In this document: positions 47,873 through 52,640 of the stretch, piece after piece
How the letters are laid out: each line of letters begins with the position of its first letter
Position numbering within the stretch: position 1 is the stretch's first letter
Origin: Kondoa subrosea
Lineage: Eukaryota
Length of the DNA: 64,000 nucleotides
NCBI GenBank assembly: GCA_039545335.1
Contig: BCIN01000001.1
Span: forward strand, 674,208-738,207
Direction: 5' to 3'
Position numbers and translations under genes: made by a program
Notes under the pieces: generated by a model
Databases searched by the model: none
What the model saw: the letters and a program-made list of their open reading frames with translations, nothing else
What the model was told of the DNA's origin: nothing

Positions 47873-48960
47873 ATGTCTAAATCTACAAACAGTACCATGA
47901 TGAAGAAGAAAGAGAAGAGGAAATCTGTTCGAATCAACTCACAACCAGAAGTAGAACCTACGATTGGGAAATCTTTGGATGAAGAATTGGCAAGTTTGAA
48001 AAGTAAAAAAGAAACTGTTCTTTTACCTGAGAAGTCACCTTTGAAACCATCTTTGAAATCATCCGCATCCACGTCTACGAGTAAGAGTAAAGCCAAAGGG
48101 GATAGAGGGGCAGAGGTTGAGGAGGTTGAAGATATTTTAGCTGGATTTGACGATGATGAAGCAAGTGATGAGGGTGAAGACAGTTCAGAAGGTGAAGAAT
48201 CGGAAGAGCAGGAAGTTGAGATCAAGATGGATGATTTACCGCCCGTGAAAAGTTCAAATCCACCTTCTACATCAAAGAAAGCTGTTCGTCTTGTATCCCT
48301 CATTGGACATTCTCATTCAATACTCATGACCCTTTCACATGACAGGCTAAAACTGGAGTCATCTATCTAGGTCGACTACCAAAAGGTTTCGAAGAAGCAG
48401 GCTTGGAAAAATACTTATCTCAATTCGGTACAATCAATCGCTTGCGTTTATCTAGAAACAAGAAGAACGGCTCTTCCAAACATTTCTGTTTTGTTGAATT
48501 CACCCATCGTTCGGTCGCGGAAATTGTTGTGGAAACAATGAACAATTATTTATTGGCTGGTCATTTGTTGCAATGCGAATTATTGGATGAAAGTAGAGTG
48601 CATCCTAAAATGTGGGTTGGTGCTGGAAAGAAGTTTAGAGTGCAACCCAAAGGAAGAAAAGAGAGGATAAAGCATAACGAGGTCAGTACTCTCTTCGCTG
48701 CCTCGTCTATGTTGAGCTGAAAGATGATGTTAATCAAATAGGAAAAGACTGATGCTCAGAAAGAAACGATTGTCAAAAGATTGATTGAACGTGAATCGGC
48801 AAAAAGAAAGAAGCTCGACGATCTTGGGATAGAGTATGATTTCCCTGGTTACAAAGGTCAAGAGAAGCCAAAGGAACTTGAAGCCGTTGCTGCTCCTGAT
48901 CCTGAAGAACCGAAAGCCAAGAAACAGAAGAAGAAGGCTAGGAAGAGTGCACCGGTGTAA
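47873..48960 (+). CDS. NOP15: Nop15/NIFK nucleolar RRM protein
   Basis: GVIYLGRLPKGFEE, SQFG..RLRLSRNKKNGSSKHFCFVEF, VVETMNNYLL, LGIEYDFPG. Confidence 0.9.
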
Positions 48961-49074
48961 TTTTATGCATGCTTTGTCTGCTCTTTCTGTTTCGCTCAAA
49001 TCCATTGAGCTACTTCTATTCCTTCCTCTTCATATCTTCCCCTTCCTTTGTATCTTCCTCTTGACTGGAATACT

Positions 49075-49365
49075 TGTTATTTAGCGGTATCGATTCTTGT
49101 CCATTGTCCGAGTGCCTCTTCCGGTCTTGTCACTCTGTGGACCTTTGCATCAATGATCATCTTATATCCCTACGTGCTTCTGATGAACTTGTGGAATACG
49201 AATGCTGACGGATCGTGGATGATTATGCGCCCGATGAAACGAGATGAAAAGATGAAACGAGATTCTCGATTGGCTTCGCAGTCAGCTACAGCCGACAACT
49301 ACGGTACAAGAGTAACCCCTCGCCCCCCGATCACCGCGCCCTATCCGAGACGTTGGACTGTGACA
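49075..49365. mobile_element. Probable solo LTR (291 bp)
   Basis: Begins TGTTA and ends TGACA (TG...CA, imperfect terminal inverted repeat). Flanks AATACT (49069-49074) and AATGCT (49366-49371) match 5/6. Contains a TATA-like GATATAAG on the minus strand and short internal GATGAAACGAGAT repeats. Confidence 0.45.
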
Positions 49366-49370
49366 AATGC

Positions 49371-49396
49371 TTTTTTTTTTTTTTTTTTTTTTTTTT
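49371..49396. repeat. T26 homopolymer
   Basis: 26 consecutive T between the putative LTR and the first 71-bp repeat. Confidence 0.95.
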
Positions 49397-49406
49397 GGGG
49401 ATTTAT

Positions 49407-49477
49407 TTTGCTTGTAGGTAGTACAGAACTTGTATGCTAGCTTATTCATAGAACGACCATTGCAAACGAAATTCAGC
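49407..49477 (+). repeat. 71-bp direct repeat, copy 1
   Basis: TTTGCTTGTAGG...GAAATTCAGC, identical to 51299-51369. Confidence 0.95.
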
Positions 49478-51298
49478 TCAAAACCGCTCAAAAGGATTCT
49501 CACACATTGCCAACTCAATTTGGACTTGGCAAGTCTGGTGGTGTTGAACCTATTCTTCGCTACATCGAGCGTGCTATTGAGGATTCACTTACGAGTATCA
49601 AGCACTCAATTATGATCGAACTTGATCTGAAGAACGCCTTTAATCAAATTTGCCGCAAACACATGGCTGAAGCAGTGGCCAAGTATGCACCTGAATTACT
49701 TCCAATGGCGACATGGGCATACAATAATGAATCTGATCTGTTCTTCTGCTTGGAAGATGGGACTGTTGAAATTATCAAGTCACGTCAAGGTGTGCGTCAA
49801 GGTGATACACTTGGCAACCTGCTCTTCTCGATTGCATATCGACCAGTGTTGGAAGATCTTGTTCGAAGGCTCAATGAAGGAGAAACGAATCAGTTCAATC
49901 TTGCTCAAGTTTTGGCTTATCTCGATGATACGAAAGCCTTTGTAGACCGCTCACGTCTTGAGGAAGTCAAAGCTATCTTTGAAGATCACCGTCATCGAGG
50001 CATCATTCTCAACCTCAAACCTCACAAGACTCGTGAAAATGGTCTTTCTCCTCAAGCTGAGATTGAAATACTTGGTAGCTACATTGGACCTTATCCTGAA
50101 CGCTTTCTTCGCGAGAAAGTCATCGGTGAAGCTCTACACCTCTTCAAGCTAGATCAACTTGAAGCCCATCATGCTCTCCTTCTCCTTCGCCTTAGTCTTC
50201 AACACCGCCTGCGTTATCTTCTTCGCACTCTTCCACCTACCCCTGCAGTACTTGAAGTTTGGGCTGAAATGGACACGAACATCTTACGAGCTGTCGCCAA
50301 ATTGCGAGGTGAACAGATACGAATTCAACCGCATGATGCTCGACTCCTCTCCTTTCCGATCAGTTATGGTGGACTTGGCTTCTTGTCTCTTAAGGAAGGT
50401 GCTGAACATGGAAGAGCAGCAATGATTGAGAAGATGGATTACTTGATCAATGACTTTGCTCCAGATGTCAATTATTCAGAACCATCAGAATTCAAGAGTC
50501 AAAGAGAGCGATGTCATGAAATGCACAAAGAGAATCGGACCAAGCTCTTACCTCAACTCAGCTCATCTGAGCTCGTTCAATATGTCGACAACCACTCCTC
50601 AATCTCTTCACAGTGTCTTCATGCCATCCCAAACAACTCTTACAAAACGCTGTCGAAGAGAGAAATTGCAGTTGGTTTGACACACCGAACGCTCATACGA
50701 GGTCACAACGACGTCTGCAAGTACTGCTGCCGTCCAAATNTCATTGGACATGATGAAGTCTGTGCTCAACGNCAGAATATGCGAATCTTCCGCCANGAGA
50801 AGGCAAAGATTACGATCAAGTACCACGTCGAAACGATAGAGGGCACAACAGTCAAACCTGAACCTTCTATTCCTGGTCGAAGAGATCGAACTGATCTNCG
50901 CATTCGCATAGCTGGACCTGGCTCGTTCCGTCAAGAAGTTGGGGACTACGATATCAAGTTCACTTCTGTTCATTCGCAACGCTTTCCTCCTGCTCCAACC
51001 ACTCAAGATCCTGACCTCTTTGCTTCAACTGAAAAACGAATTTCACATTACCTGTCTGGAATTGAAGCGGAGAAGAATCGTCACTACTGCAGTCTCGTCA
51101 AGAATCCTTTCCACCCTATCATATTCACCTCATCTGGAACTCCTTCACCTAACTCAAAAGATGTCCTTGCTCATTGGCAAGATCTCATGGATCCGTATGT
51201 ATACAAGTCATTAATTCTCGATCTCTCTATCAATTTGTTACGCGCTCGGTCTCGTTGTTTTGTTCTCTGAAGTAAAAAGGGAAAGCTGAAGTAGACAA
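49478..51298 (+). mobile_element. 5'-truncated non-LTR retrotransposon, CRE clade (Cnl1/MoTeR/SLACS-like): RT + CCHC + restriction-like endonuclease
   Basis: Intronless ORF to 51270 with QFGLG, LDLKNAFN, GVRQGDTLG, AYLDD, ILGSYIG, GGLG, Cx2Cx7Hx3C, RH/xE, RTD...DIK...EAEKNRHY and FHPIIFTSSG. It begins inside the RT domain with no ATG. Four N calls lie within it. Confidence 0.9.
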
Positions 51299-51369
51299 TT
51301 TGCTTGTAGGTAGTACAGAACTTGTATGCTAGCTTATTCATAGAACGACCATTGCAAACGAAATTCAGC
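51299..51369 (+). repeat. 71-bp direct repeat, copy 2
   Basis: Identical to 49407-49477. Confidence 0.95.
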
Positions 51370-51479
51370 ACGCGCCCTCTAGGAGGACTCGCACAGTAGA
51401 GTGCTATTGTGAGAAAATGCCTTACAAAGTTTTGTTGGTATTTCAATAACATAAATGAGCCTACAAAGCTTACGTAATC

Positions 51480-51616
51480 ACTGTAATAGTCTAGTAGTTG
51501 TATGCAAAACCTTCTCGCTTCTTCGAATTCTGCTTATATCTGTGTCAATTTAGAGGATATGCCTTTCCCATTTGCGTGGCCTGGGCATGACCTGGGTTCA
51601 AGTCCCAGTTACAGTA
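51480..51616 (+). tRNA. tRNA-Gly(CCC)-like gene with two introns (54-nt GT-AG intron in the D-loop; 11-nt 37/38 intron); atypical, possibly degenerate
   Basis: ACTGTAA-TA-GTCT-AGTAGTT|51500-51553|A-GGAT-A-TGCCT-TT-CCC-A|51571-51581|T-GGGCA-TGAC-CTGGG-TTCAAGT-CCCAG-TTACAGT-A. Acceptor 7/7, perfect T-arm, 72-nt mature length, TTTT at 51624. It lacks the D-loop GG and has A1-U72. Confidence 0.75.
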
Positions 51617-51789
51617 TCTCTACTTTTGCTCGAGAGTTAAACGTCGAAGCCTTGCTATTTTTTTGATCAAAGTAATGTGGTATTCTTTCTCAGTACGGAT
51701 AATACTGCCCAGGACTGTGCATCTCGTTCCCCCCATACGCAGGGGGAACAGGTTGGAATACAGGCAAACTGCTCGAAATCAGCCAATAC

Positions 51790-52640
51790 AAAATAAAAGG
51801 AATGCAGCTCACCTTTGAACTCTATGATGCCTGTTGTAATACTTTGCCGAGAGTACGACATAAGTCAACCCAGTCATGATGACAGTCGCTCCCAATCTGA
51901 TGAATAGATCAGCTCGAAGCAGAGTAAAATCACAGAAACAATACTGACGCGATACTAGGAACTCGAGTGCCTTGAGGACCCCATTCGATAGTCAGATTAC
52001 TTGCGCCGCTGACAACGAAAAGGATGCCTCGATCAAACATAGCTGTTCTTGTTGCCCAGACACATTTCAGGCAAATGAAGCGAGTAAATTCAGGCGCTTG
52101 AACCACGAGTGAGCTGAAGTTTCGAGGAAGGAGACAAAAAAGGTGACTTACCAGCTATGAATAAGCCTACAATAATGAATATGGTACCGATGATAGCTTG
52201 TAAAGCATCAGGCTTAGTTGTAGTAGCTGGATCCTTGAAAACGAAAGCAGATGCGAATCGAGCTACATTGCAGAATCAGCTGTCGACCCTCCAAAAGGAG
52301 ATTAGACTGACCAGCTCCGAGGATAACAAAGATGACGGCCATCAGCAGATCGACCCATCTTCCTTTCTCGACCGCAGATTCACCAACCTCAGTGATTACG
52401 GAAGGACTGGGCCTGGGTCGAGCGCTTCTCGGAGTAGGCGGCAAGTAATCACGATAGGACTTATTGTCGGTGACGGAAGATGCAGAGTAGAAGGAACGGT
52501 CATCGTATAGTGGAAGAGATCGTTCGGAACGCAACCTCCGTCCAGCATGAGCTTTCTCTGGTCTATCATGTCTTGTGCCAGTGGAAGCAGAGTACAAAGT
52601 ATAGCGTTCAGGATTGTCTGGAGAACGCATTGATTGAGAA
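51790..52640 (-). CDS. Hypothetical small membrane protein; boundaries uncertain
   Basis: ORF 52214-52717 has a hydrophobic WVDLLMAVIFVILGAG segment, followed by splice-like signals and further hydrophobic exons. Confidence 0.35.

Follow-up and report, generated by a model that had tools for sequence, protein, structure and literature searches.

Several non-long-terminal-repeat (non-LTR) retrotransposons can be compared with the element described in this paper. SLACS, CRE1, CRE2 and CZAR make long target-site duplications, that of SLACS being 49 bp. Cnl1 is described as an element of 3.4-3.49 kb, lying in subtelomeric arrays and mostly 5'-truncated, and is reported to insert into itself, nested in tandem orientation. 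In the part of one preprint that deals with them, the non-telomeric insertions of Cnl1 measure from 25 bp up to the complete element, and their duplications are absent or 1-12 bp long (bioRxiv 10.1101/2021.08.11.455996). The non-LTR elements listed as tRNA-associated are TRE5, TRE3, NLTR-A and NLTR-B, all of them dictyostelid, and the sections giving these lists report a restriction-like nuclease for none (PMC5006619, PMC5911963). The locus analyzed here belongs to the basidiomycete yeast Kondoa subrosea and lies in a stretch of 64,000 nucleotides from contig BCIN01000001.1 (referred to as the window, with positions counted from its first letter). Between two copies of a 71-nt direct repeat it carries a 5'-truncated element with a reverse transcriptase (RT), a CCHC motif and a PD-(D/E)xK nuclease.

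The element is Cnl1-like, a telomere-associated non-LTR element with a restriction-like nuclease and of a kind already known, and the copy in the window is an ordinary dead one. The locus is probably a dead, 5'-truncated, internal copy of a multi-copy R2-type family resembling Cnl1 and MoTeR, in which the 71 nt belong to the element's own 3' untranslated region (UTR) and copy 1 of the repeat is an attached UTR fragment. The value of this result lies mainly in a correction: a long and perfect repeat on either side of a site-specific non-LTR element may be its own UTR and is not necessarily a target duplication.

The 71-nt repeat and the 3' UTR

The two copies of the repeat (49407-49477 and 51299-51369) are 100% identical, as an earlier note on this DNA had stated, and they form the sole long direct repeat at the locus. 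When 49300-51700 was compared with the window by blastn, the second copy was the sole other match and the element was otherwise unmatched. Between the copies lie 1821 nt of element-derived sequence (49478-51298), of which the last 28 nt (51271-51298) separate the stop codon from copy 2 and contain no A-run, so that the short spacer and the missing poly(A) tail in that description were both borne out. The same is true of the four Ns (50740, 50772, 50796 and 50898), which all lie in the element and are the only ones in the window; two of them alter the translation of the open reading frame (ORF) and the other two are silent.

In the earlier note the 71 bp were taken for a target-site duplication, with the alternative that they are 3' UTR and that copy 1 is a tiny tandem piece. 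The duplication had to be given up, since variant copies and a related locus (L001) continue through the 71 nt and a terminal motif lies downstream of them. The alternative holds in essence, but the UTR runs on for at least another 48 nt beyond what it supposed.

Contigs of two Logan runs (X1 and X2) from one sample, possibly the assembly's own, were laid on positions 50899-52200. The word depth of such contigs is not a copy number, and depths were taken only to mean several copies. The single-copy flank is represented by contigs of depth 144.7 (X1) and 54.9 (X2), both starting at 51388; allowing for a 30-nt overlap, the unique sequence starts at 51418. A variant contig of 1456 nt (X1 record 1, depth 500.6) differs from the window at 12 positions, the last at 51291, and runs from the ORF over the 28-nt and 71-nt segments as far as 51392, without any difference after 51291. 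X2 record 11 likewise spans 51298/51299. The contig for 51363-51417 has a depth of 940 (about 6.5 times the single-copy flank), and another of depth 842 (about 5.8 times the flank) runs 143 nt past 51417, beginning GGCAGGAGAATCTTCAGCCCCAGTCACCGA. The sequence past 51417, starting GGCAGGAGAATCTTCAGCCCCAGTCAC, is common to other copies of the organism over at least 143 nt and might be its telomere repeat. The continuation in most of them is the 15-mer GGCAGGAGAATCTTC, which lies 148 nt after the stop codon and is also given as GGCAGGAGAATCTTCAG... and GGCAGGAGAATCTTCAGCCCC....

With the family alignment as query, a scan of metagenomes turned up 48 related loci. Among these, L001, which falls in one family with protein P0001, shows 67-70% DNA identity to the window element. 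The sequence after its stop codon can be aligned over the 28/71 boundary of the window, the block CTTGTA..TAGCTT..TCATAGA..CCA.TGCAA of the 71 nt is conserved in it, and GGCAGGAGAATCTTC starts 158 nt after its stop codon. The motif GC[AG][GC][CG]AGAAT has 11 matches in 570 kb of related loci (both strands), and 6 of the 11 lie 136-168 nt past the ORF match. At three of the loci, L004, L005 and L006, only 2 nt stand between it and the CCCCCTAA repeats that follow, which makes it a marker of the family's 3' end; it was not found in the 64-kb window. Since this conserved motif lies downstream of the 71 nt, the 71 nt are placed inside the element. Judged from these alignments, they are an internal piece of its 3' UTR and not duplicated host DNA, and the whole 3' UTR is estimated at about 165 nt, made up of 28, 71 and 48 nt and then GGCAGGAGAATCTTCAG in other copies. 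The predicted fold of the 147-nt UTR was no better than that of shuffles (z 0.59).

The terminal word can be read as GCAG(C/G)AGAAT at L004:2675, L005:3489, L006:3481 and L001:1864, and as GCGCGAGAAT at L017:7420 / L019:7792. It is kept across lineages that are only 30-45% identical in protein. It may be a handle for priming or for RT binding.

Protein and architecture of the element

The stop-to-stop frame 49441-51270 on the forward strand has 609 aa and no internal stops, and Pfam RVT_1 matches residues 26-199 of it (E 6e-9). Full-length relatives have 938-1038 aa with an N-terminal Cys/His region; by alignment to them, the window copy is without roughly the first 360-450 aa. RT homology in L001 extends upstream by about 200 nt more than it does in the window, and the 5' truncation is therefore real. 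A regular expression matched residues 426-485 as C426-x2-C-x7-H-x3-C-x9-R(H/Q)E-x20-E-x8-RTD, where residue 452 is H or Q owing to an N. Residues C426, C429, R451, E474, D485, D504 and K545 are invariant across 14 aligned sequences (the window and 13 relatives).

In a comparison of the family profile with the PDB, the top matches were R2 proteins (E 4e-30), and a weaker third profile stretch aligned the CCHC and nuclease residues to R2 with a domain independent E-value of 0.014. The AlphaFold model of the 609 aa has a predicted local distance difference test score of 85.6 and a predicted template modelling score of 0.82. The top 7 Foldseek matches to this model are all R2, over 701-721 aligned columns at 14-16% identity, and LINE-1 ORF2p was aligned over only 389-494 columns. 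Because the profile and the AlphaFold/Foldseek matches both lead to R2, the reading of the element as RT, CCHC and PD-(D/E)xK, proposed in the earlier note, holds at the level of profile and model, and the predicted architecture is of R2 type.

Precomputed Pfam annotation of the relatives shows PF00078 alone in 13 of 15 and no domain in the other 2. A wider search for relatives added PF00075 in P0059 and PF17919/PF17917 in P0064; the apurinic/apyrimidinic (AP) endonuclease domain PF03372 appeared only in its two weakest matches, with the window copy itself lacking the N-terminus. The label in the Protein Atlas is 'hypothetical protein, RVT_1' only.

For the CRE clade, the published motif, as given in the part of the source that defines it, is C[x1-3]C[x7-8]H[x3-4]C[x9-10]RHD/N.x19-33.E.x9-21.R/KPD.x12-14.D/E (PMC12857005). 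The window fits the spacing over C-x2-C-x7-H-x3-C-x9-R(H/Q)E-x20-E. It departs from the motif in having E for D/N (P0001 has RHD), in a distance of x8 and not x9-21 from E474 to RTD, and in RTD itself, where the motif has R/KPD. After D485 the invariant acid is D504 at x18, and E499 stands at x13. An insect relative, P0051, was auto-named 'SLACS 132 kDa protein' by its source. Membership in the CRE clade is putative and would rest on three indirect points, namely the motif layout, this auto-named relative and the behaviour of the relatives.

The window copy has no N-terminal zinc-finger region and no RT front, its frame does not open with a start codon, and it is predicted to be unable to move by itself. 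With its open frame and perfect repeat the element looks young, and the Ns fit collapsed near-identical copies; the idea of a recent insertion of a multi-copy family was in this respect well founded.

Relatives at telomeres and in arrays

Telomere repeats of C-strand type directly follow the UTR in 9 of the 16 relatives inspected (L002, L003, L004, L005, L006, L007, L012, L016 and L030). These are (CCCTAA)3 at L002 and L012, (CCCTAAA)2-3 at L016 and L030, and CCCCCTAA-type tracts at L003, L004, L005, L006 and L007. As one family abuts three telomere repeat types, it therefore tracks hosts with different telomerase templates. The contigs of L009, L013 and L020 end too early to judge the 3' side, and no telomere repeats were present within 420 nt at L008, L017/L019 (one locus seen twice) and L028. 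A strict telomere regular expression applied to all 48 loci recovered only 3 of the 9.

Head-to-tail arrays on telomere repeats can be seen in L002, L003, L004 and L007. The contigs of L002 and L004 close on themselves, the repeating unit being 3359 and 3395 nt long, respectively, in L003 the UTR end and telomere tract are repeated 3476 nt apart, and in L007 a short telomere tract separates a full copy from a 5'-truncated tandem copy. By their sequences, most relatives in this multi-copy family are judged to stand head-to-tail with their 3' ends on telomere C-strand repeats, as Cnl1 and MoTeR do. At L007:6643-7800 the order is a full copy, about 200 nt of UTR, a telomere-like tract, a 5'-truncated copy of another subfamily, UTR, a telomere-like tract and a similar start again, which makes this locus a small array of mixed subfamilies.

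The expectation of site-specific insertion is borne out by these telomere-bound relatives and not by the window copy, which is internal, with unique DNA on both flanks, and sits neither in a spliced-leader gene nor on a telomere.

A quick IQ-TREE phylogeny (LG+G4, 50 rows, 576 columns) was built from unnamed relatives and the window, with the root placed as a long-branch guess; 25 of 75 candidates with fewer than 380 aligned residues were dropped, and P0059, P0061 and P0064 had been dropped earlier. The window pairs with P0001 (support 100), and both fall in a clade of 6 rows with P0002, P0003, P0004 and P0020 (support 100). The telomere-adjacent loci are in four other branches.

Proposed origin of the block

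As listed in Table 1, the locus reads, in order, AAATGC, T26, GGGGATTTAT, the 71-nt UTR fragment, the truncated RT from about residue 370-450 onward, the stop codon, UTR pieces of 28, 71 and 48 nt, AAATGC (overlapping the final AAA), 62 nt of unique DNA and a tRNA gene. The T26 run begins the block 10 nt before copy 1 and is the sole A/T homopolymer of at least 9 nt in the window; no A/T run of at least 10 nt was found in 285 kb of related loci. In a simulation that allowed 0-4 nt of slack, the chance of the AAATGC bracket was about 0.0013, and perhaps about 0.004 after allowing for the three left boundaries considered. As such a pair is improbable by chance, the whole block of about 49371-51417 looks like retroposed material within a 6-bp AAATGC duplication. 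With a single block and a 6-bp duplication, the empty site would be expected to read ...GACAAATGCCTTACAAAG...; neither the joint nor an empty-site form was present among the contigs over 50899-52200 of the one sample.

Table 1. Coordinates of the features at the locus and of the tRNA gene beside the sister element L001
Feature	Position	Strand	Basis
AAATGC, left copy of candidate 6-bp target-site duplication bracketing the block	49365-49370		same hexamer at 51415-51420
T26 run, distal end of block; unexplained	49371-49396		minus strand: A26 after ...AAAATAAATCCCC
GGGGATTTAT, 10-nt orphan separating T26 from copy 1	49397-49406		absent before copy 2
Copy 1 of 71 nt, putative 3' UTR fragment abutting truncated RT	49407-49477	+	identical to 51299-51369; homologous to L001 post-stop region
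5'-truncated ORF including stop	49478-51270	+	frame scan, Pfam, alignment, motif regular expression
RT, RVT_1	about 49516-50037	+	Pfam
CCHC	50716-50763	+	motif
Restriction-like endonuclease core	50791-51075	+	motif
Stop codon of element ORF	51268-51270	+	frame scan
3' UTR, initial 28 nt	51271-51298	+	aligns with L001 post-stop start; holds 3 subfamily differences
Copy 2 of 71 nt, normal position within predicted 3' UTR	51299-51369	+	variant contigs bridge 51298/51299; block conserved in L001
3' UTR, further 48 nt; copy ends about 17 nt before family 3' end	51370-51417	+	contig depth; flank contig start
AAATGC, right copy; AAA shared with UTR (microhomology)	51415-51420		sequence, simulation
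tRNA-Gly(CCC)	51480-51616	+	Rfam RF00005, 36 bits, E 5e-6, small-range search; ARAGORN after insert removal
tRNA-Asp(GTC) of L001	L001:1958-2110	+	ARAGORN only after scripted insert removal

Searches around the block gave no further source for it. The decamer GGGGATTTAT had no covering blastn match to the 48 related loci (queries 49300-51700 and 48960-49406), Rfam had no match upstream of T26 (48950-49500), and nothing similar to the flanks 48960-49406 and 51418-51700 turned up among the related loci or the family proteins. It is a speculation only that GGGGATTTAT or CCCCAGTCAC might be a 10-nt telomere unit of the organism.

Copy 1 is inferred to be a piece of UTR fused to the 5' end that the truncation left. 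A short older copy may have received a younger one by reverse transcription, both being oriented alike (nested self-insertion), or a template switch of the reverse transcriptase may have joined a UTR fragment to the truncated body. With a target that is itself a UTR copy, a target-site duplication and the element's own UTR are indistinguishable. For the block as a whole, target-primed reverse transcription on the sense strand, from the tRNA-proximal side, is preferred at roughly even chances, because L001 is oriented likewise, the end of its UTR pointing towards its tRNA gene. A nicked end ...GCATTT-3' would pair with the UTR bases AAA(A) at 51414-51417, and synthesis would start some 17 nt short of the 3' terminus of the RNA.

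Several observations weigh against this account of the UTR and the block. The T26 run and GGGGATTTAT at the far end are left unexplained by the sense-strand route. The window has no other long homopolymer than T26, which adjoins the left AAATGC and, seen from the minus strand, reads as a poly(A) tail preceded by an AATAAA-like word; with the 3' terminal motif missing as well, the block bears the classic marks of a poly(A) retrocopy in minus-strand orientation. The contig coverage of 50899-52200 does not reach the left junction (T26, copy 1 and RT), so the duplication has no independent verification there. Subfamily differences cease at 51291, with 3 in the 28 nt and 0 in 51299-51392, which alone would fit a boundary between element and target at 51298; their halt is here put down to a conserved UTR core, the same part being kept in L001. 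No contig crosses 51369/51370 with at least 31 letters on each side, the longest reach of the variant contig being 23 nt beyond, and contig depth carries the caveat of not equalling copy number. L001 has no upstream UTR fragment, and the duplication is peculiar to the window locus. The shared 6-mers that could mark a target-site duplication of L001's own number four, about the chance expectation.

The T26 run would be accounted for if part of a nested array had been transcribed in antisense and polyadenylated, and this RNA was then copied from a top-strand 3' end at ...AAATGC, giving a block of the same content; T26 might in that case record the reverse transcription of antisense transposon RNA. 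On the top strand the product would have the order T26, GGGGATTTAT, 71 nt and sense element, with the 71-nt duplication already present in the source locus; the transcript would end at ...AAAUAAAUCCCC, and the stop at 51417 would be a 5' truncation of the RNA. The A26 directly adjoins the left AAATGC, an AATAAA word stands 5 nt before the tail, the tail-distal end is truncated and without the terminal motif of the family, and T26 is unique in the 64 kb and absent from the 285 kb of relatives. However, this requires an antisense poly(A) RNA and a source locus with GGGGATTTAT ahead of the 71 nt, neither of which was observed, and the priming end ...ATGC offers no T for pairing with poly(A). In addition, L001 lies in sense orientation upstream of its tRNA gene with a complete UTR end and no T-run, which fits sense-strand priming better. 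The antisense route is considered rather unlikely, yet a serious rival.

If the element ended at 51298, as first proposed, the 71 nt would be a true target-site duplication at a specific repeated target common to all copies, for example a minus-strand poly(A) retroposon upstream of tRNA genes. The repeat is indeed perfect, the subfamily differences stop at 51291 with none in the following 94 nt, and T26 and AAATGC would become the tail and the target-site duplication of the target element. Yet the terminal motif that directly precedes the telomere repeats in telomere-bound relatives lies downstream of the 71 nt, and only a 28-nt UTR would remain, compared to roughly 140-500 nt from the ORF to the telomere repeat or terminal motif in relatives. 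The X1 variant contig also crosses the 71 nt without the break expected from a second, similarly abundant context (a weak point, as contigs are simplified), the left flank of L001 has no target remnant, and the duplications reported for Cnl1 are at most 12 bp in the text consulted (bioRxiv 10.1101/2021.08.11.455996). A true duplication of 71 nt is thus highly improbable. An artefact of assembly, in the duplication or in the placement of the element, is also held to be quite improbable. In that case a short UTR fragment would be real and a repeat consensus would have been looped in through the shared 71 nt, hence the Ns, all four of which are inside the element. The element body here is indistinguishable from sister copies across the identical 71+48 nt, and copy-1 contexts appear in 0 of 6 X1 records over 50899-52200, an absence that is not evidence. 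Against this, the right junction between UTR and unique flank stands on 17-18-kb contigs in both runs, the exact element version of the window has about 1.1-1.7 times the flank depth in X2, and the 71-nt repeat is short enough for ordinary reads to span.

tRNA genes near the element

The tRNA gene that the earlier note had placed 110 bp after copy 2 is present and was identified as tRNA-Gly(CCC). It starts 110 nt past copy 2 and 62 nt past the element end, in the same orientation. A 54-nt GT..AG insert (51500-51553, starting GTATGC) lies in its D-loop, in addition to an 11-nt intron in the anticodon loop. Because of the D-loop insert, both ARAGORN and a whole-window Rfam scan missed the gene; with the insert removed by script, ARAGORN reported tRNA-Gly(CCC) with the 11-nt intron. 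At the opposite end of the window, at 23-176 on the minus strand, there is a tRNA-Arg(TCT) with a 66-nt intron (Rfam, 31.8 bits), found by ARAGORN only with the intron option.

The element end of L001 lies 80 nt upstream of a tRNA-Asp(GTC), also in the same orientation. This gene has a 53-nt GTAAGT..CAG insert (L001:2030-2082) in the T-arm/acceptor region, along with a 10-nt canonical intron. It can be seen that mRNA-type inserts in tRNA genes occur also in the organism bearing this sister element. The upstream gene and the tRNA of L001 differ from those of the window, and the two insertions are therefore independent. Both loci of the sublineage formed by the window and P0001 are tRNA-upstream in the same orientation, at 62 nt (Gly-CCC) and 80 nt (Asp-GTC). 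For a random point, the probability of lying no more than 100 nt upstream of a same-strand tRNA gene is about 0.0016 (our own estimate, from 2 tRNA genes per 64 kb). One independent replicate at about this level is notable, though it is a single replicate and the enumeration of GT..AG removals was itself a search.

Standard scans of the relatives gave no further cases. ARAGORN reported no tRNA in any of the 48 related loci, L001 included, Rfam at the gathering threshold gave none in 17 loci, and no tRNA was found near internal copies of other lineages (e.g. L017/L019 and L028). T-arm-like motifs in L027, L034 and L035 were rejected as not being tRNAs, and those in L017, L019 and L020 lie inside the RT-coding match and are most likely codons of the conserved GGVEP motif. 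The sequence TTACAAA.T.TTTGTTG.TA, shared between 51421-51440 of the window and L001:1889-1908, scored as high in 42 of 2000 shuffles; it is too weak and may be due to chance.

The suggestion of a possibly new, tRNA-proximal target is not shown, but it has gained one independent replicate in L001. It is doubtful that a sublineage of telomere-bound Cnl1-like elements gained a real preference for sites 60-80 nt upstream of tRNA genes, with the 3' end facing the gene. Such a preference would work through contact with the RNA polymerase III (Pol III) machinery or through priming on DNA ends arising at tRNA genes; the proximity would be explained equally well by active targeting, by survival in safe sites or by breakage at tRNA genes. 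A literature search gave no report of Cnl1-type elements at tRNA genes. Should the sublineage's non-telomeric copies indeed cluster upstream of tRNA genes, this would link chromosome-end retrotransposons to Pol III-gene targeting or to tRNA-gene breakage.

Comparison with known systems

The distances to tRNA genes resemble those of the dictyostelid elements TRE5-A and NLTR-B, the window copy and L001 being 62 and 80 nt upstream, and the ranges stated in the relevant part of the source being 31-98 bp for TRE5 and 39-64 bp for NLTR-B (PMC5006619). In contrast to the present element, those elements are L1-like or RNase H-bearing, have an AP endonuclease and include dozens of tRNA-linked copies, whereas here there are two loci and a restriction-like nuclease. 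SLACS, CRE1, CRE2 and CZAR match in part of the nuclease motif, as far as the cited portion shows (PMC12857005). They are inserted in spliced-leader genes, however, and no long duplication is supported at the window locus.

The R2 proteins (9dou, 9nl3, 8gh6 and 8ibw) give the best profile and fold matches over the RT, linker, CCHC and nuclease. Target-primed reverse transcription with a 3' UTR handle, as in R2, is presumably used by analogy. The differences are that the target of R2 is 28S ribosomal DNA and that identity is only 14-16%. MoTeR of Magnaporthe and FoTeR of Fusarium share the nuclease layout C-x2-C-x6/7-H-x3-C-x9-RH(D/E)-x20-E...R-x-D, according to the section describing it (PMC12857005), and also form telomere-associated arrays. 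Both belong to ascomycetes and begin, on the 5' side, with variant telomere repeats, whereas that side in the window consists of T26, GGGGATTTAT and the UTR fragment.

Cnl1, with which the element was compared by description, differs in several respects: the window ORF is only 30-33% identical to the CCCCCTAA-associated L003 and L004 and falls in the separate 6-row clade, and the window copy is internal and beside a tRNA gene. Nevertheless, the likeness to Cnl1 extends over many features. Both have a single long ORF with an RT and a C-terminal nuclease, and the units of 3.36-3.48 kb in the relatives of the window element are close to the 3.4-3.49 kb of Cnl1. The relatives also have 3' ends on telomere C-strand repeats, including CCCCCTAA, head-to-tail arrays and 5'-truncated copies. 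At the one locus of the window, the 71-nt UTR fragment followed by a truncated copy fits nested self-insertion, and the 6-bp AAATGC bracket is within the 1-12 bp reported for Cnl1.

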